This document shows positions 22,266 through 31,333 of a stretch of DNA of 32,000 bases, piece after piece. The DNA is from an archaeon. Lineage in GTDB: Archaea > Asgardarchaeota > Thorarchaeia > Thorarchaeales > Thorarchaeaceae. The DNA lies in the NCBI GenBank assembly GCA_024275415.1, contig JAJRZD010000019.1:30001-62000 (forward strand). The letters run 5' to 3'. Made by a program: the position numbers and the translations under genes. Below the pieces are notes generated by a model, which did not search any database, was not told the DNA's origin, and saw only the letters and a list, made by a program, of their open reading frames with translations. Position 1 is the first letter of the stretch; every line of letters begins with the position of its first letter.

Positions 22266-23258
22266 ATGAGAGTGACCTTAGCCATCATCATATTATTACT
22301 CGTGCCCGGACTGCCCTATAGAGCAAGCCAAGCCAATTATACACCCTCCTTTGATGGTGAAGAAGCATTCAACCATCTCGTGGCTCAAACTGACTTTGGA
22401 CCACGCCCCCCTGGCTCTGATAATCTGACCAAATGTAGGAACTACATCATTAATGAGCTTGAGCAGATCGGCTGGACTGTATCTCTCCAGACCTTCACTT
22501 ATATGGACACATTCATTACAAACATAGTCGCTGAATGGCCATCAAGATCACCCTCCTTCTTTGTGGTAGGTGCTCACTATGACACCCGCCCCTATGCAGA
22601 TCAGGAGTCTGACCCAACTGACAGGACTCTTCCCGTTCTTGGTGCAAATGATGGCGCCAGTGGAGCCAGTGTCTTACTAGAACTTGCTAGAGTTCTTCCC
22701 GAAAGCATCAGGGGCTCCGTGGAGTTTGTATTCTTTGATGCTGAGGATTCAGGTAATATCAATGGGTGGGACTGGATTGTCGGCTCAACATATTATGTAG
22801 ACCAGTTAGATTAGCAGAAACGCGCTAATATCACTGGTATGATCCTGCTAGACATGGTCGGCGACGCTAATCTGGTCATCCCCCGTGAGGTCAGCTCCAC
22901 CAATAGCCTTCAGGACGCTATCTGGACCACTGCAAAGGATCTGGATAATGATGACATCTTTGTGGACTCCCCCGGGGCGTCTATCCTTGACGACCACCGA
23001 CCGTTCCTCGATGCTGGTATTCCCGCAGTAGACCTGATACACTATCCATTCCCAGAAACTTGGCATACGCTGAACGACACTCCTGAGAACTGCGACCCGA
23101 ACAGCCTTCAGGCGGTTGGAGAGGTCGTGGAAACATTCCTAGTCACCAACTCTGACTCTTATCTTCCAGATGCACCATTTCCGTCCGTTACTATTGTTCT
23201 CATCGCCCTTCTCCCAGTGTTCACGGTGGCTGCAATCAGGTTCCGTCGTCGTGAGTAG
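22266..23258 (+). CDS. Secreted, membrane-anchored M28 zinc peptidase (glutaminyl-cyclase-like) with an in-frame TAG at codon 183
   Basis: Signal peptide; GAHYDTR, GANDGASG and FFDAED before the TAG at 22812-22814; LLDMVG, DDH.PF and WHT..D after it in the same frame; C-terminal TM helix and RFRRRE tail. Confidence 0.85.
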
Positions 23259-23311: not shown

Positions 23312-24208
23312 GTGAGAAACTTGGAAAAAAGGATCCTTTTCAGGCTAACCGGAGTCAAACAGGTTCCCCTCACCCATTTGGCAATCACCCCAAAGGGAGA
23401 TCGGATAGCTTGTGGCACAAGCGACGCAAGAATACTTCTCATCAATCCTACGACCAGAAAACTCCTTCGTTCTCTCACAGGACATCAATCCATGATATCG
23501 TCCCTTGCTTTCACTCATGAGGGCACTCGGATTATCTCATCCAGCTGGGACACGACCACTAGACTGTGGAGCAGCACAAAGGGCAGCCAAGAGAAATCAG
23601 TACTCAATCACACATCTGAAATGAAAGCACTTGCGGTACATGACAAAACCGCACGAGGTGCAGTCGGCACACGAGATGGACTGGTGAAAGTGTTCTCTCT
23701 CAAATCAATGAAATGCATGAGGAACATCTCCGCTCACATCCGTGATATATCAGGCCTTGCTTTCGCATCTGATGGGACATACCTGATAACTTGCTCTTGG
23801 GACGGGTCGGTCAAGGTCTGGGATTTGAACTCGTATAACCTGTTGAAGGATCTGGTGCGCCAGAAGGAACGGATTAGATCCATGTCCTTCTTGCCCAATG
23901 ATTCGAGAGTATATCTGGGGCTACACAATGGGGTTATCCGTTCTGTTTCTCTTGAGAATGCACGGGATGTCCACGAATTGAAAGGACATAACGATATAGT
24001 GAGTTCGCTATCTATCGACCCCTCCGGAACACTTTTGGTTTCAGGCAGCTGGGATCGAACGATTAGAATCTGGGACCTCTCATCCAACACTCCTTTTGCT
24101 GTCGAAACGGCAGGAACTGGTATCTCCTCTCTGGCATGGCACCCGTCTGCAGAATATTTCTACGCGACCGATTTCTCAGGAACTCTTGCCGAGTGGGACT
24201 TGAGTTAA
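23312..24208 (+). CDS. WD40-repeat beta-propeller protein
   Basis: About 7 repeats with GH...WD signatures (LTGHQS...SSWD, AHIRD...SWDGSVKVWD, LKGHND...SGSWDRTIRIWD). Confidence 0.92.
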   Translation: MRNLEKRILFRLTGVKQVPLTHLAITPKGDRIACGTSDARILLINPTTRKLLRSLTGHQSMISSLAFTHEGTRIISSSWDTTTRLWSSTKGSQEKSVLNHTSEMKALAVHDKTARGAVGTRDGLVKVFSLKSMKCMRNISAHIRDISGLAFASDGTYLITCSWDGSVKVWDLNSYNLLKDLVRQKERIRSMSFLPNDSRVYLGLHNGVIRSVSLENARDVHELKGHNDIVSSLSIDPSGTLLVSGSWDRTIRIWDLSSNTPFAVETAGTGISSLAWHPSAEYFYATDFSGTLAEWDLS

Positions 24209-24269
24209 AGTGCAGTTTTTATGTGCGGGGATGATGGCAGTCTGCATCCTTCAGCAATCAGGCATTCCC

Positions 24270-24980
24270 CTATGAGAACACTCTCAGGTCGATGTTCAGG
24301 AATCCCTCCTTGTGCATAATCAGCCGCACCCGTCCGTACTTCCTCTTACCAGTAACAATCGCTTGAAGGGTTTCCCGCTCAGAATTTCTACTTCGTTTGT
24401 CGAATGGGATGGGAACCTTCTCCCCCGATAGCGTAAGCACCTCGACAGCCTTCTCGAACACATCAACGAGCATCCCCGAAAGGATTATAGTGCCATGCTT
24501 GAAGTGTGGTATTTTCCCTCTTATGCTGACCAACATCTTTGATAATTGGCGATGCCTACTTATCTCTGCAGCTGCGCTCCGAATCACGTCCTTTACAAAC
24601 TGGTTCGCGTATAGATGCACAAATTCAATCCGTGTCCCCTCTGAAACGCGAATCTTTTCTATGGTACCATGACCCGTCCTACCAAGGTGTTGTTCTGGGA
24701 AATACCTGGCGACCAGTCTATCCTCAAAACGTCTTCCAAAGGACTGAAGGCTATCTTTTTCCTGCCCTCCCACTTTCCGGACAAGGAACCCTGTCACAAT
24801 TCTATCGTGCAGGAACCTCTCCGCCTTGGACTTGTTGCCAATCCCTTCCTTGTAGATCGTTTTGATGGCGAAATTTGTGGCATCTGCATACACATTGAAA
24901 TCATGTTCCAAAGTCAGTTGTTTTGTGCGAGACAGTGGCACGCTAAGCAACTTGACTATCTCGACCTGTTTCTCAGACAT
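24270..24980 (-). CDS. TnpB/Cas12f-like N-terminal (WED-REC) protein lacking the RuvC domain
   Basis: Pattern match by eye to the IS200/IS605 TnpB N-terminal half: KLLSVPLSRTKQLTLE..F..Y..ATNFAI, NQFVKDVIRSAA, KIPHFK, VLTLSGEKVPIP, GRVRLI...FLNIDLRV. The protein stops where RuvC-I (GVDLG) would begin. The ORF track starts at 25022; the ATG at 24980 is preferred. Confidence 0.6.
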   Translation of the reverse strand: MSEKQVEIVKLLSVPLSRTKQLTLEHDFNVYADATNFAIKTIYKEGIGNKSKAERFLHDRIVTGFLVRKVGGQEKDSLQSFGRRFEDRLVARYFPEQHLGRTGHGTIEKIRVSEGTRIEFVHLYANQFVKDVIRSAAAEISRHRQLSKMLVSIRGKIPHFKHGTIILSGMLVDVFEKAVEVLTLSGEKVPIPFDKRSRNSERETLQAIVTGKRKYGRVRLIMHKEGFLNIDLRVFS

Positions 24981-25043
24981 CGCCTTCACTTGTGATGATG
25001 CTACCTTGCCTTGCTTAATCAATCTAGCTCCGGGAACAGTCGC

Positions 25044-26069
25044 TCAGAGCCTGTCTGCTATGAATCTTGCTTCAGCAATCCCCCTCTGTATTCCCTTCGG
25101 AAGCAGGTCATAGGCGCCGAACTCGAGCATGACCTTCTCATAATACTCGGGCTCGTGCTCCCGTAGATTCGCCATCAACGAGTCCCCTGACTTGTATGCA
25201 TCCTTCAAAGTCAGTAATGCCAGCCCGATCATCGTCATCGCCCTACGCATCTCAAGGACTGCAAGCTCATAATCCCCATTGAACGTCAATGTCTGTGCTC
25301 CATAATAGTTCCGCTGTGCCTGAATCAGATGCGCTCCTGTGGGACTCTCAGGTGTGACGTTCTCATTCTCCTCAAGCCGTTCAACTGCTCTCTCAAGCCA
25401 CTCCCGTACTATCTCAAGGATCTCGACAAGCTGCTTCTCTTCCATGCCCTTGAGCCTGAAGGTTCTCAGGAAGAGCTTGTACATCGTCGGATCCAGCAGC
25501 CGGATGTTGGAAAGCACCTCTGAAGGTTTGATGATGTCAAAGATGTTGTTGCGCATGATGATCAAGCGACTCAGGTCGAATATCCCACCCCTCATCTCGT
25601 GCACCGCCGATTCGATATCGTTCTCTGCAAGATGTCCTTCCGCACGGGTCAGCTCCTCAAGTGCAATCTGTTTGATCTTTTGCATGGTCTTTTCAGGCCA
25701 TTGATAGGACTTGGCACGCTCTATCCATCTCTGCACGTCCCCGTCTTCATCAAACTCGACCCTAGCGCTCTTCAGCCTGCTTACGACCCCTGCAATCACG
25801 AATGCATGGTCTTCGTACTCGTCGAATATCTCTTCGAACTTGGCGCTTGGGATGAAATCCATGTCTATCTTGATCCCTCTATGCTCAGCTATCAGCCTTG
25901 CAGGCGCCTCATCATCCTTCCAGACAATGACAAGGTCAAGATCTGAGCCCATCGTAGCGGTGCCTTTCACCACGGACCCGTAGGTGAAGATGCCTTTCAC
26001 CTCATCCCGCTTCTTCCATTCCTCAATGGTGTCCTGAAGGGCTGCGTCAAACCTACGGCCAATATCCAT
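25044..26069 (-). CDS. Minimal nucleotidyltransferase (MNT) fused to two HEPN-like helical domains
   Basis: YGSVVKG.....SDLDL (GS...DxD). ALEELTRAEGHL..NDIESAVHEM and AQRNYYGAQ.L..NGDYELAVLEM resemble HEPN first helices. Confidence 0.8.
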   Translation of the reverse strand: MDIGRRFDAALQDTIEEWKKRDEVKGIFTYGSVVKGTATMGSDLDLVIVWKDDEAPARLIAEHRGIKIDMDFIPSAKFEEIFDEYEDHAFVIAGVVSRLKSARVEFDEDGDVQRWIERAKSYQWPEKTMQKIKQIALEELTRAEGHLAENDIESAVHEMRGGIFDLSRLIIMRNNIFDIIKPSEVLSNIRLLDPTMYKLFLRTFRLKGMEEKQLVEILEIVREWLERAVERLEENENVTPESPTGAHLIQAQRNYYGAQTLTFNGDYELAVLEMRRAMTMIGLALLTLKDAYKSGDSLMANLREHEPEYYEKVMLEFGAYDLLPKGIQRGIAEARFIADRL

Positions 26070-26229
26070 CTTTCTCGCTCCTCAATCTTTATGCACCCCG
26101 ATGATGTACGTTTCAGAATATGAATCTACACCCGACCTATTAATTGAATGATTCCTTCTCTCTTGGGAGAAACCTTTTCCGACATCTCTTAATAGCTGTA
26201 TAAATCCGTATCCCGTAGAGGCACCAACA

Positions 26230-26934
26230 ATGACCAGAACCGATGGCAGAGCAAACAACGAACTACGACCTGTCACCATAACCCGCAACTACCTCAAACA
26301 CCCAGAAGGCTCAGTCCTCATATCGACCGGGGACACGAAAGTCATATGCACGGCCACCGTGGAAGAAAACACTCCCAGTTGGCTCAATGGCACCGGCCAG
26401 GGATGGGTCACCGCTGAATATGCGATGCTCCCGCGTGCCACGAACGAGCGTACCAACCGCCACAAGGTCTCGGGCAGGAACCAAGAGATACAACGCCTGA
26501 TCGGACGCTCCCTCCGCGCAGCAGTCGATATGAACCGGATGGGCGAAACGACAATCAAGGTGGACTGTGACGTGATCCAAGCAGACGGCGGCACACGGAC
26601 TGCCTCTATCACTGGCGCCTATGTCGCTATGGTCGATGCCCTTGCTTACATGATCGACATGGACATCATTCCCGACCTCCCCCTGCGAGGGAACGTGGCT
26701 GCTGTCAGCGTGGGTGTGGTCGATGACGAGTGCCTGCTTGACCTCTGTTATGTGGAGGACTCGGCAGCCCAAGTGGACATGAACATCGTCATGCTGGATG
26801 ACGAGTATGTAGAGGTGCAGGGGACAGGCGAACACTCTACCTTCGACAGGCAGGCGCTGGACGAGATGCTCGACCTCGCCAAGAAAGGCATCTCCCAGCT
26901 CATCAAGCACCAGTTGAGCGCCCTCGACCTGTAA
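26230..26934 (+). CDS. rph: Ribonuclease PH, bacterial type
   Basis: [78 protein letters not shown]. Confidence 0.93.
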
Positions 26935-27416: not shown

Positions 27417-27445
27417 TACTGTGCCGGGTGCATGAGTAAATTTGC
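27417..27445 (+). other. 5' strand of the pre-23S processing stem with BHB motif
   Basis: TACTGTGC-C-GGGTGCAT pairs with GTGCATCT-C-GCACGGTA (31317-31333). Central helix GAGT (27434-27437) / ATTC (31310-31313), each followed by an AAA bulge. Confidence 0.8.
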
Positions 27446-30020
27446 TATTTGCTGTATGACTGTTGGTGGATGGCTTGGTTGGCAAACCGATGAAGGGCGT
27501 GACAAGCAGCGATATTCCCTGGGTAGGCGCATGAAGCCTTTGATCCGGGGGTGCCCGAATGGGACTTCCTCGCATGGGTTAATACCCCATGTGGCTCCAG
27601 TGTCGCAGCTGGAGTGGGAACGCTCCGAACTGAAGCATCTTAGTAAGAGCAGGAAAAGAAAACAATAGTGATTCCCCTAGTAACAGCGAGCGAACGGGGA
27701 ACAGGCCAAACCGAATCCCATTGCGAAGAGTGATGGGAGATGTGGTGTGTGGGCACGGGATCTATCGCCGACGGACCTAAGACGAAGTCCTCTGGAACGA
27801 GGCGGCGGAGAGGGTGAAACCCCCGTAGTCGTAAAGTCCGGGCGTTTCCTGTGTTCCCGAGTAGCGCGGGTTGGTCTTCTCGCGTGAACGTCCCAGTCGC
27901 AATCTGGGAAGCCTAAATATTATGCCAATCCGATAGCAAACTAGTAGCGCGAGCGAAAGTTGAAAAGAGCCGCGGAAGCGGGGTGAAAAGCACCTGAAAC
28001 CAACAGTCTAAACAAAGGATGCTGATTAAAAGAGTAGACTCTCGGCGAACGAAAACGGAGTGATCCGTGTGTAGGAGCCGAGACGATCGGATTAGCATCA
28101 TCCGTCTTGAAACACGGGCCAGGGAGTTCACGGACGTGGCGAGATTAAGACATGAAGTCGTAAGCGAAGGGAAACCGACAAGCCCGCAGCCTTCGGGTGA
28201 GGGGCGAGGTGTGATAAGTGCCTGTAGTCACAGCCGTGACACGAGAAACCAGTCGATCTTGGCGTGGGCAGGGTGAAGCCGGGCGAAAGCTCGGTGGAGG
28301 CCCGAAAGGGTTCTGACGTGCAACTCGTTCCGTTGACCTGCGCGAAGGGGTAAAAGGCTTATCTAGACTGGTGATTGCTCGTTCTCCGCGAAGTTGGTCG
28401 TAGCCAAGCCCCACTCGAGGTATCATGTGGTGTAGAGCACTTTTGGAAGCGCCCGGGGGACGTCAAGTCCTTCACCTTCCCGAAAACTCCGAAGCTGCAT
28501 GAACTGTAGACGGTGGGAGACGGGTGCCCGGGGTAAGCCCGGCAGGCCGAGATGGGGAGAACCGAGAGTATGGTTAAGGTCCCTAAGTGCCGGATAAGTG
28601 CGGTGAAGAAGGGAGTCGAGAGCCCAAGACAGTCTGGGGGTGAGCTTAGAGGCAGCTATCCCCGAACGAAAGCGTAACAGCTCACAGACCGAGGCTCTCG
28701 GCCTTGAAAATGGACGGGGCTCAATCCGGCCACCGAGACCATACAGCACACGAGTACCATCGTGTGATCTGGTAGCGGAGCGATCTGGTAGGGTAGAAGT
28801 GGGGCCGTGAGGTCCCGTGGACCTGCCAGATTTGATGATCCTGGCGGTAGTAACAGCGTAGCATGGTGAGAATCCATGTCACCGAAAGGGAAAGGGTTCT
28901 TCGGCGATGCGTCATCAGCCGAAGCTTAGTCGGTCCTAAGTGGCGTCGTAACTCGAGCGTCACGAAAGGGAATCAGGTTAATATTCCTGAACCTCGGAGA
29001 TACATTTCACGGTAACGTAAAGCCGGGTCTGTGACTCATCTGGACAGGCCAAACGCAGCTCTCGCTGTGTTTAACACTATAAGCCTACCGAGTACCGTAA
29101 TGGTGAGAAGTAGGTGAAGGGTGGAATAGCGGGTGGTCGGACACCCGTTTGGCTCATTCCTGGTGACCTTGAAAAACAGATCCGGAAGGATTCTCCGAGT
29201 CCGTACCCAGAACTGACACAGGTTCCCTGGCTGAGAAGGCCAAGGTGTATCCGGGTCACTCCTCCTGAGGGAAATCGGCCAATTAGCGGCGTAACTTCGG
29301 GATATGCCGTGCCTGGGTTAGTGCAAGCTTTCCTAGGTCTTAGTAACTCAGGGGTCCCAACTGTTTAATACAAACATAGCTGACTGCGAGCGGGAAACCG
29401 TTAGTACAGTCAGTGAATCCTGGTCTGTGCCTGTCTGTTAAAACTCAGAAATGGGTCGAAGCACAGGTTAACGCCGGGACTAACTATGAGTCTCTTAAGG
29501 TAGCCAAATGCCTTGTCGGTTAAATGCCGACGTGCATGAAGGGAGCAATGAGGTCCCCACTGTCCCCAGGAGGAACCGGGTGAACCCACACCATACCGAA
29601 CAGTGTATGTACGCCCAATGGGAAGAGAAGTCACTGCGGAGGTTTACTACGCAGTCTGTCGTTGCCATTTCTGATATCATACAGAGTATAGTCAGGAGCG
29701 ACGAAGCACGTTCTCCGGGACGTGTGGATGCGACCGTGTAATACTGACTATGGTATTGGGGATGGCTAACCTAGACCAAGCGAGTCTAGGGACACCGGCA
29801 GATAGGCAGTTGGGCTGGGGCGGCACAGGGCTGACAAGAGATCAGCCCTGACCAATGGTGGACTCAGAGGCGACGGAAACGTCTCGTCGAGATCAAGGGC
29901 ATAAGTCCGCCTGACAGGATCCCTAACAGCAACGGATCCTGGGACGAAAGTCTGGCCTAGCGAACGTTTACATGCCAATTGTAGGGCGGTAGACATGACA
30001 AAAAACTTACCCCAGGGGTA

Positions 30021-30811
30021 ATCTCTAGCCGGTCGTCAAAAGGCGAGGATAATAAATACATCATTGCCATTTAATGAGTGGAAAAAAATGGAACGTTGGG
30101 ACATATCAGATGATGAAGACTTTGAGAAGGAGAATCTGGATAGACCAGAAACTCTGGTTCGAAGGTACATTGAACAGTTGTTCAAGGGTACAGATCGCAT
30201 CACTGAAACAATGTTAGCCAGCGTAAACATAGCCTATCTCGCAGGCATTACTGAAGATGCCCACCTTGGCCAAGGTGGAAAAGAAGGATATGTCTTTGAC
30301 ATCGAGTCTAAATCAGAACGATGGCTCACTGACTTAATTATGCCTGCACTCAGACTTGAGATTCCTGAAAAGGAAATTAGAGTCAAACGACGTGGTACCA
30401 GACCTGAGTATCGTATTCAGGTATGGGACAAAAAACTCGTTGAAACCCTTCGAGTATTATTCGAAAGACCTGGAATAGTCCGTCTGTGGAGTATTCGAAA
30501 TCAACGAGCGTGGGTGCGTGGTTTTGCTGATGCTGAAGGATCAGCAACTCGTAACACGGACAAACAACCACAATTTAGTTTCTACAACCAAAACTTGGAG
30601 AAACTTAAGATAGCAGGCGAAATCCTTGAAAAAGATGGAATCCACTTTGGCTTCTACCTACCAAATGGTAGAGATGTGTGGCAAATGTATCTAACAGGAC
30701 GCGAGAATCTAAAACGTTTCCTTGATGGGGAAGCTTCTGGGGTGAGCCATCCTGAGAAACGTTCACGCTTACTTCAATTCCTTGCTGAGTAGCGCCGACT
30801 AGGGACCCTAA
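30021..30811 (+). mobile_element. Archaeal BHB-type rRNA intron (791 nt) inserted after A2450 (E. coli numbering)
   Basis: Removal restores GGGGTA|ACAGAGTCGTC. The intron ends form a 12-bp stem (30022-30033 with 30794-30805; 2 G-U pairs, 1 mismatch). Helix GGGG/CCCT carries TAA and AAA bulges; cutting after the second bulge base gives exactly these boundaries. The intron does not end in G, so it is not group I. Confidence 0.9.
30088..30792 (+). CDS. Intron-encoded two-motif LAGLIDADG homing endonuclease (first motif degenerate)
   Basis: AYLAGITEDAHL (30238-30267) and AWVRGFADAEGS (30511-30540). ATG at 30088 preferred over the TTG at 30064. Visibly more AT-rich than the flanking rRNA. Confidence 0.9.
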   Translation: MERWDISDDEDFEKENLDRPETLVRRYIEQLFKGTDRITETMLASVNIAYLAGITEDAHLGQGGKEGYVFDIESKSERWLTDLIMPALRLEIPEKEIRVKRRGTRPEYRIQVWDKKLVETLRVLFERPGIVRLWSIRNQRAWVRGFADAEGSATRNTDKQPQFSFYNQNLEKLKIAGEILEKDGIHFGFYLPNGRDVWQMYLTGRENLKRFLDGEASGVSHPEKRSRLLQFLAE

Positions 30812-31094
30812 ACAGAGTCGTCGCGGGCAAGAGTTCATATCGACCCCGCGGCTTGCTTCCTCGATGTCGGCTCTTGGTATCCTGGCGTTGCATAAGGCGC
30901 CAAGGGTGCGGGTGCTCACCGATTAAAACCGAACGTGAGCTGGGTTTAGACCGTTGCGAGACAGGTTGGTTTCTATCTATTGGGCGTGTTGGTCAACTGA
31001 CGGCAAGATGTTACCGGTACGAGAGGAACGTAATGTCGCGACCAATGGTGTACCCATTGTCCGATAGGGCAGCGTGGGGTAGCTAAGTCGTAAT

Positions 31095-31127
<33 letters not shown>

Positions 31128-31300
31128 AGACCGGAAAATAGTTGACCACTTAAGTGACGGTCCTACCGAAGGAGCGCGGGGCTGGTGACAGCGACGCGTA
31201 GTCACGAAACGAGGGTTCTGCTAGAAGAGCAGGTTAATAGGGCAGGGGTGTAAGTACCGAGCTCCGGCGAGGTATTCAGCTCACTGCTACTAATACCCGA

Positions 31301-31333
31301 GGCAAGCGAATTCAAAGTGCATCTCGCACGGTA
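31301..31333 (+). other. 3' strand of the pre-23S processing stem with BHB motif
   Basis: Complementary to 27417-27445; ATTC-AAA bulge at 31310-31316. Confidence 0.8.

Follow-up and report, generated by a model that had tools for sequence, protein, structure and literature searches.

Why would an archaeal lineage keep the recognition half of an RNA-guided nuclease and not the half that cuts? The question is raised by one gene in a 32,000-nucleotide stretch of a Thorarchaeaceae genome (assembly GCA_024275415.1, contig JAJRZD010000019.1, positions 30,001 to 62,000 of the forward strand), which we refer to as the window. The gene, called here the WED-REC gene, encodes a protein of 236 residues whose motifs recall the WED and REC domains of the nucleases TnpB and Cas12f. 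An earlier note, made from the letters of the window, had described a clean open reading frame (ORF) and had taken the product for a domesticated, RuvC-less relative of TnpB. The frame is indeed intact:

24270..24980, minus strand: ORF of the WED-REC-only protein (P0001), 236 codons plus a TAG stop (24270-24272), supported by its orthologs and by dN/dS.

On the basis of its predicted fold, distribution and surroundings, we consider it rather probable that the gene preserves a TnpB/Cas12f recognition lobe, truncated and immobilised, which has been kept as a non-catalytic nucleic-acid binder.

Predicted structure of the WED-REC protein

The AlphaFold2 model, built on 24 homologs, reaches a predicted local distance difference test score (pLDDT) of 89.1 and a predicted template modelling score (pTM) of 0.86. 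It begins with a strand (residues 6-13), continues with a helical part (18-149) and closes with six strands and one flanking helix (164-235). In ISDra2 TnpB, the WED domain comprises residues 1-12 and 117-176 and forms a seven-stranded oligonucleotide/oligosaccharide-binding (OB) barrel with a flanking helix; REC (13-116) is inserted after β1, and RuvC starts from residue 185 (PMC10097598). The model is divided as follows:

24933..24980, minus strand: residues 1-16, the N-terminus and first WED strand (β1, 6-13), from the model, aligning from TnpB residue 1.
24501..24932, minus strand: residues 17-160, the helical REC domain between WED β1 and β2, from the model and its alignment to TnpB.
24273..24500, minus strand: residues 161-236, six further WED strands and the flanking helix, from the model and alignments.

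Helices α1-α2 of REC (residues 21-69) coincide with an in-register profile match to archaeal TnpB. The invariant motifs IPFDKRSRN and RVRL sit in residues 161-236, and the last WED strand is the end of the protein.

Searching the PDB with Foldseek returned a top 50 made up of Cas12f, Cas12n, TnpB or other Cas12/type V effectors without exception (best E 1e-6). In an exhaustive VIA-align search, 33 chains scored Z >5, and 31 of them are Cas12, TnpB or Fanzor. The best match is the dCas12f of 9n9c (Z 14.0, root-mean-square deviation 3.8 over 168 residues, chain 2-212); AsCas12f (8dzj) reaches Z 13.7, Fanzor2 Z 12.1 and ISDra2 TnpB (8h1j) Z 11.2 over 161 residues (chain 1-175). The fold matches in the ESM Atlas are archaeal TnpBs (TM 0.63), and the language-model neighbours are TnpB N-terminal families.

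Because the alignment reaches about residue 175 of TnpB and RuvC starts at 185, the model represents a complete recognition lobe that ends at the lobe boundary. The gene is thus predicted to encode the isolated WED and REC lobe of a TnpB/Cas12f-type RNA-guided nuclease. The WED-REC-WED order with a stop right after the last WED strand had been read from the sequence in the earlier note, which had also named a lack of structural similarity to TnpB as the result that would overturn it. The model and the structural alignment agree with that order, and the comparison with TnpB and Cas12f gave strong similarity (Z 11-14) instead.

Sequence similarity to TnpB and Cas12f

At the level of sequence, neither a Pfam search of the WED-REC protein nor a family-profile search of PDB sequences gave a match. 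The NCBIfam profile of Cas12f2 matches weakly at residues 18-45 (profile positions 10-37, E 0.04), as does the Cas12f profile of PADLOC at residues 137-232 (positions 92-190, E 0.036). PADLOC made no defence-system assignment beyond these weak Cas12f matches and matches to minimal nucleotidyltransferases. The family profile also matches the first ~70 residues of Asgard ORFs of 384-392 residues bearing PF01385 and PF07282. By hhalign, it aligns with a 27-sequence profile of Asgard TnpB N-termini at a probability of 62% (E 7e-5, 49 columns); against two of the genome's own TnpBs it gave no signal. The weak matches are all in register with the N-terminal halves of TnpB/Cas12f.

Such marginal similarity to TnpB would also be expected of a stand-alone WED-REC-like fold that did not come from TnpB, being either an ancestral module or a convergent pairing of an OB fold with a helical bundle. 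We regard this origin as improbable. The topology is identical over the entire lobe, nearly all the chains above the Z threshold belong to TnpB, Cas12 or Fanzor, and the register of the sequence matches is kept. Moreover, TnpB is ubiquitous, but the WED-REC family is limited to one Asgard family and a few lineages close to it.

Absence of the nuclease lobe and of mobility

Neither RuvC nor the TNB zinc finger was found in the WED-REC protein. It has zero cysteines and an isoelectric point (pI) of ~10; across seven proteins checked, this one and six relatives, the pI is 9.7-10.6 with 0-1 cysteine. In the whole genome, a scan for PF07282 located three TnpB genes of the ordinary kind, none of them on this contig. 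Around the WED-REC gene we found no repeats resembling the ends of an insertion sequence (IS) and no CRISPR array, and tnpA is not among the neighbouring genes. In place of the mobility of IS200/IS605-type elements, we observed one copy per genome and a fixed locus. Structure, PF07282 scan, neighbour search and repeat search thus agree with the first impression that the gene carries no RuvC remnant, tnpA or IS end.

The same note had noticed an apparent insertion of about 55 residues in REC. It is real, slightly longer, and confined to a few genera:

24606..24776, minus strand: lineage-specific REC insertion, residues ~69-125 (~57 residues), from alignments, split profile matches and pLDDT.

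The insertion is restricted to the window's genus and four other genera, which have the long form, and it is the least confident segment of the model (pLDDT 54-74). A short form of 179-195 residues, without the insertion, is found in most genera and in the deep relatives. The short form, which is close in size to the REC lobe of ISDra2 TnpB, is probably ancestral.

Distribution, synteny and selection

We searched 400 Asgard genomes, 85 of the window's GTDB family and 315 others, in six frames with the family profile. An ortholog was recovered in 79 of the 85 genomes and in 16 of the 16 genera of the family, whose members are named Candidatus Thorarchaeota by their sources and include SMTZ1-45, AB_25 and one closed chromosome. 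The six genomes of the family that lack it are 65-88% complete. The 315 other Asgard genomes yielded none, save weak matches in four; the three of these that were inspected are TnpB N-termini. Among 1.84 billion representative proteins, searched exhaustively, just 16 clusters were found, nearly all from the WED-REC family.

The gene is present as a single copy in the window's own genome. In the metagenome-assembled genome of LCG1B.62 (G327), whose contamination is 6%, a long-form and a short-form copy (L052 and L087) lie on different contigs; these may be true paralogs or reflect a mixed bin.

The ORFs of the orthologs are all 179-243 residues long, and none runs into RuvC. Gene order is the same in 30 of 30 loci: RNase PH (divergent), a nucleotidyltransferase (NTase), the WED-REC gene, a WD40 gene (convergent) and an M28 peptidase. 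The immediate upstream neighbour is:

25044..26069, minus strand: NTase of 341 residues in which a Pol-beta NTase domain is joined by a HEPN-like helical one, from Pfam, fold and adjacency; possibly, at most, in one unit with the WED-REC gene.

The most divergent relatives (P0034, P0036 and P0040, 25-31% identity) have the same block minus the WD40 gene. One of them, P0036 (L043 5001-6134), is a divergent ortholog fused to a C-terminal extension of ~185 residues, a run of helical repeats that matches nothing in Pfam and is not RuvC. Searching two of the weak-match genomes and a sister-family genome with P0040 found nothing. In the sister family, which belongs to the same order and is represented by one genome (96% complete), the NTase ortholog is present at 30% identity, and neither the WED-REC gene nor its upstream motif was found.

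In 24 pairs with unsaturated synonymous divergence (dS), the ratio of nonsynonymous to synonymous substitution rates (dN/dS) is 0.06-0.25. A common length range, synteny with the NTase gene and a dN/dS below 1 had been named as points to check in the earlier note, and its claim of domestication is substantiated by single-copy, vertical inheritance at a fixed locus under purifying selection.

One might still suspect a decaying TnpB fragment, a recent truncation or pseudogene without function, since databases contain many ORFs of about this size that are N-terminal fragments of TnpB. In that case close relatives could be expected to carry a full-length TnpB at this site; none was found among the relatives. 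The idea is already contradicted by the presence of the gene in 16 of 16 genera at a fixed locus, by the intact frames and invariant motifs and by the constraint just described, and we give it next to no probability.

Search for a partner RNA

TnpB-type proteins act with an RNA, and a structured segment after the stop codon had been pointed out, as one much shorter than a typical omega RNA. It lies here:

24209..24269, no strand: spacer of 61 nucleotides to the convergent WD40 gene, carrying a hairpin; not conserved and not significant.

The hairpin (GGGGA...TCCCC, 24229-24270) folds no better than shuffled sequences (z -0.27). The WD40 gene (23312-24208) ends 61 nucleotides from the WED-REC gene, close to the approximately 60 first estimated, and this spacer is an outlier, as the convergent stop codons of most relatives are -15 to +19 nucleotides apart. 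With z at chance level and the spacer missing in most relatives, we rejected the hairpin as a partner RNA. In most loci, the same narrow gap is too small for a 3' omega-type RNA.

Omega-RNA scaffolds often overlap coding sequence. In a sliding-window analysis of 11 close pairs, synonymous differences are flat along the gene (0.20-0.34 where n >70); because of this flatness, there is no sign of a conserved RNA overlapping the ORF. Rfam, run over the window, reported 23S ribosomal RNA (rRNA) only and no partner RNA near the gene. A further candidate, a hairpin with apparent covariation downstream of the conserved upstream motif, was rejected after the folding of 28 different spacer sequences, for which z averaged -0.24.

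These results bear on the idea that the protein is an RNA-guided or RNA-loaded regulator like TldR or dCas12f, with its guide or scaffold RNA encoded in trans. The idea draws on precedent: the characterised exapted derivatives of TnpB/Cas12 all stay RNA-guided (PMC10691335), and WED contributes to scaffold binding in TnpB (PMC10097598). However, the RNA scaffold of TnpB and TldR depends on both WED and RuvC, and their heteroduplex channel is made by REC and RuvC (PMC10097598; 10.64898/2026.09.22.753285). The RuvC half of both surfaces is gone from the WED-REC protein. Most loci lack the space for a 3' RNA, the ORF shows no synonymous constraint, Rfam detected nothing and the spacer before the ATG has no significant structure. 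We thus think an RNA-guided role quite unlikely.

A conserved motif upstream of the WED-REC gene

The 45-83 nucleotides that separate the stop codon of the NTase gene from the WED-REC ATG are unconserved apart from one block:

25014..25026, minus strand: near-invariant upstream motif, TAGATTGATTAAG in the window and GGTTAGATTGATTAGG as the family consensus, from locus alignments.
24986..24989, minus strand: Shine-Dalgarno-like word GTGA at -6 to -9 from the ATG, from start contexts.

The 16-mer consensus GGTTAGATTGATTAGG is asymmetric and contains TTGAT. Exactly one copy of its 9-mer core, always in the same position, is present in 29 of the first-fetched loci, and the core was seen in 37 of another 40. 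In about 90% of loci, the motif has its 3' end 29-36 nucleotides upstream of the ATG (29-32 in 34 of 38 such loci), and this distance is held even where the spacer extends to 272 nucleotides or the motif abuts the NTase stop. From the constant distance to the ATG, we conclude that the motif is anchored to the WED-REC gene.

The motif also helps to place the start codon. We take the start as the ATG at 24980, which is used across orthologs, all of them opening with M-S-D/E. Gene-caller deposits give a form of 250 residues (P0002) that starts from a TTG at 25022; we rejected this start, which falls within the conserved non-coding motif and whose frame relative to the ATG is inconsistent among relatives. 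Genome-wide, a G-rich Shine-Dalgarno signal is seen at -9 to -12, and the GTGA word fits it.

No position-specific TATA signal relative to the ATG is visible genome-wide, where only the Shine-Dalgarno signal appears, and local TATA boxes were instead defined from upstream regions of transfer RNA (tRNA) and NTase genes. The motif is one base away from such boxes, for example CTTTATTAG, which precedes a tRNA-Thr gene, and the box of the NTase gene, AGATAGCTTTATTGA, which has its TAGAT prefix in common with the motif. Most simply, the motif would be the gene's own core promoter, similar to a TFB-recognition element and TATA box (BRE/TATA), serving an mRNA with a short leader. The NTase promoter is less conserved, its best 8-mer being common to 15 of 30 loci, and since the motif exceeds it in conservation, an additional operator role is possible. 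Upstream of the NTase gene, at ~26116-26131 (minus strand), we notice a promoter-like, conserved block; its sequence is GTGTAGATTCATATTC for the window's genus and AGATAGCTTTATTGAC for the majority of the other genera.

Two other meanings of the motif were considered and rejected. The counts do not suit the signal of a genome-wide regulon or a word common to promoters: there are 15 copies of AGATTGATTA where 9.5 would be expected, and 26 of ATTGATTAG where 36 would be, most of them within ORFs. The motif also appears to fail as an ancestral transposon-associated motif (TAM). TTGAT is the TAM of ISDra2 TnpB; in the closest Asgard TnpB copies that sequence could detect, the flanking words are like TTCAC or TTCTC (three copies, tentative), and for that reason the match to the ISDra2 TAM is probably a coincidence. 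These copies (L039, L040 and L041; G309 and G110) encode a TnpB of ~385 residues. All three have the left-end hairpin CTCAAGGAAGCCCC...GGGGAGGAATTGAGG, the right end finishes with ...GAGGTAGTTTA, and the left flank, TTCAC or TTCTC, may be their TAM.

The 13-mer TAGATTGATTAAG has a second exact copy in the genome, the sole other one, on contig C57 (16558-16570, plus strand), where ~0.1 would be expected by chance. It lies 53 nucleotides before an ORF of 251 residues and ~1 kb from one of the genome's three full-length TnpB genes (C57 14319-15548).

The neighbouring nucleotidyltransferase

The NTase gene had been labelled MNT-HEPN (minimal nucleotidyltransferase with HEPN) and linked to the WED-REC gene as its co-oriented upstream neighbour. 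Its product matches PF01909 (E 2e-9). Alignment columns G31, S42 and D69 are invariant, and D43 and D45 nearly so (≥90%). Fold matches include 3c18 (Z 15.9), ANT(4') (Z 14.1) and the HEPN protein AF_0298 (Z 13.3); the HEPN-like domain holds an inserted bundle, and the overall architecture is that of kanamycin nucleotidyltransferase (KNTase). Judged by this fold evidence, the label is correct. The R-x(4-6)-H motif of HEPN RNases was not found, there being no histidine among the invariant or near-invariant alignment columns. The fold and orientation of the neighbour thus hold good; the functional link does not follow from adjacency, which does not discriminate here because the whole block of ~10 genes is syntenic.

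The WED-REC protein could nevertheless be a substrate-recruiting partner of this KNTase-like enzyme, holding, for example, the 3' end of an RNA for modification, and there might be a tie to the adjoining RNase PH and rRNA genes. The two genes adjoin in the same orientation, with a gap of 45-83 nucleotides, in every locus, including those of the deepest relatives. The NTase retains the catalytic G-S, D-x-D and third Asp columns, and its fold relatives include the oligonucleotide-synthesising NTase HalB. On the other hand, the synteny extends over the whole block, the promoter-like motif is anchored to the ATG of the WED-REC gene and not to the NTase stop, and the sister family keeps the NTase without the WED-REC gene. 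Predicting a complex of the two proteins, in a run made without controls, gave a score of 0.08, which speaks neither for nor against a partnership. We regard a partnership with the NTase as unlikely.

A proposed history and function

Most parsimoniously, an ancestor of the Thorarchaeota family would have had a TnpB gene that lost its nuclease half and its mobility. From then on the truncated gene would have been handed down vertically, as a host gene in one copy and with a promoter-like element of its own.

A nucleic-acid-binding role can be inferred from the predicted fold and from the charge (pI ~10). In TnpB and TldR, the TAM duplex lies in a cleft formed by WED and REC only (PMC10097598; 10.64898/2026.09.22.753285). 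By analogy, the recognition lobe alone would be a complete reader of motifs in duplex DNA, and would hold half of each RNA-dependent surface. This division of the lobes, together with the pI near 10 and the lack of a detectable partner RNA, makes guide-independent binding of duplex DNA the best supported activity. Binding without cleavage would suit a regulatory or architectural role, for which the gene's own promoter box would be the first candidate target. As a tentative and rather doubtful extension, the protein could be a guide-independent, TAM-style reader that represents a new class of archaeal DNA-binding regulators, with the 16-mer of its own promoter as candidate site and autoregulation through competition with TBP/TFB.

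Several points weigh against the proposal of a truncated TnpB kept as a DNA binder. Homology to TnpB rests mostly on the predicted structure, the sequence support being weak (62%, 49 columns), and hhalign gives no signal toward TnpBs of the same genome. The order of events may have been the loss of RuvC from TnpB or, less parsimoniously, descent from an old stand-alone module. DNA rather than RNA is suggested as the ligand solely by the role that the missing lobe plays in TnpB, and a guide RNA may be encoded elsewhere in the genome.

Other genes of the locus

Divergent from the NTase gene, the RNase PH gene (26230-26934, plus strand; PF01138 and PF03725) lies ~500 nucleotides before the 23S rRNA gene, and it adjoins the NTase/WED-REC pair in most loci examined. 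In two loci of the window's genus, a gene of 301-302 residues with a weak HTH_20 match is found between RNase PH and the NTase gene (L001 3934-4842 and L003 3912-4817). The window is without this gene, and its RNase PH-NTase gap is just 160 nucleotides.

The archaeal 23S rRNA gene (27442-31312, plus strand) spans 3871 nucleotides against a model of 2987 positions. Within this span, an ORF at 30064-30792 encodes a LAGLIDADG_3 domain (E 6e-11), marking an rRNA intron with a homing endonuclease. On the far side of the WD40 gene, the M28 peptidase gene (22266-23258, plus strand) is broken by one in-frame TAG (22812-22814) with both halves staying in the same frame; its orthologs are uninterrupted and 329-367 residues long.

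Comparison with known systems

The whole WED-REC protein superposes on the recognition lobe of the TnpBs of IS200/IS605/IS607 elements (ISDra2 TnpB, 8h1j, 8exa). In contrast to these, it is without RuvC, TNB and the C-terminal domain, and no omega RNA, tnpA or IS ends were found with it. Its gene is single-copy, immobile and fixed in synteny, and carries a lineage-specific REC insertion. Structurally, the protein belongs within the TnpB/Cas12 superfamily; because RuvC, TNB, an adjacent guide RNA and mobility are all lacking, the WED-REC family is a derivative and not a functional member.

Like TldR and the inactivated, immobilised TnpBs (Altae-Tran et al. 2023, PMC10691335), the WED-REC protein appears exapted, immobilised and non-cutting, and it keeps REC and WED. 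TldR retains a degenerate RuvC and has a guide RNA of ~100 nucleotides encoded beside its gene, and the characterised TldRs are bacterial (10.64898/2026.09.22.753285). The WED-REC protein, however, lacks the entire nuclease lobe, and no RNA was detected with it. The dCas12f of the dCas12f-σE systems (9n9c) and miniature Cas12f provide the best structural matches; dCas12f still has its RuvC fold, along with a guide RNA and a sigma factor as partner, whereas no RuvC, guide RNA, sigma factor or CRISPR array was found at the WED-REC locus.

Neither the RuvC fold nor the guide RNA has been lost from the exapted forms described in the searchable literature, namely TldR, dCas12f-σE, Cas12k and Cas12m. 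No paper turned up when full texts were searched for a TnpB without RuvC, or for TnpB in combination with Thorarchaeota, and the WED-REC-only form looks like an undescribed way of recycling an RNA-guided nuclease. If true, a host-fixed protein of WED and REC only would mean that the half that reads the TAM, or the protospacer-adjacent motif (PAM), can be selected on its own, with motif reading separated from RNA guidance. It would also offer a natural minimal scaffold of ~180 residues for the study or engineering of TAM recognition. Asgard archaea are the group nearest to eukaryotes, and the WED-REC gene adds to them a lineage-defining gene.

Similar in size are the TnpB N-terminal 'Transposase (Fragment)' clusters PF27234 (MJ0013), PF27142 (Aq_aa04) and PF27229 (SSO2105_N), which comprise proteins of ~160-260 residues in the same fold and feature space. 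These clusters may be either conserved host genes or products of IS decay; for the WED-REC family, the single copy, the synteny and the purifying selection are established. Should the same step have been taken independently in several lineages, TnpB derivatives consisting of the recognition lobe only would represent a recurrent and so far unrecognised route of exaptation.

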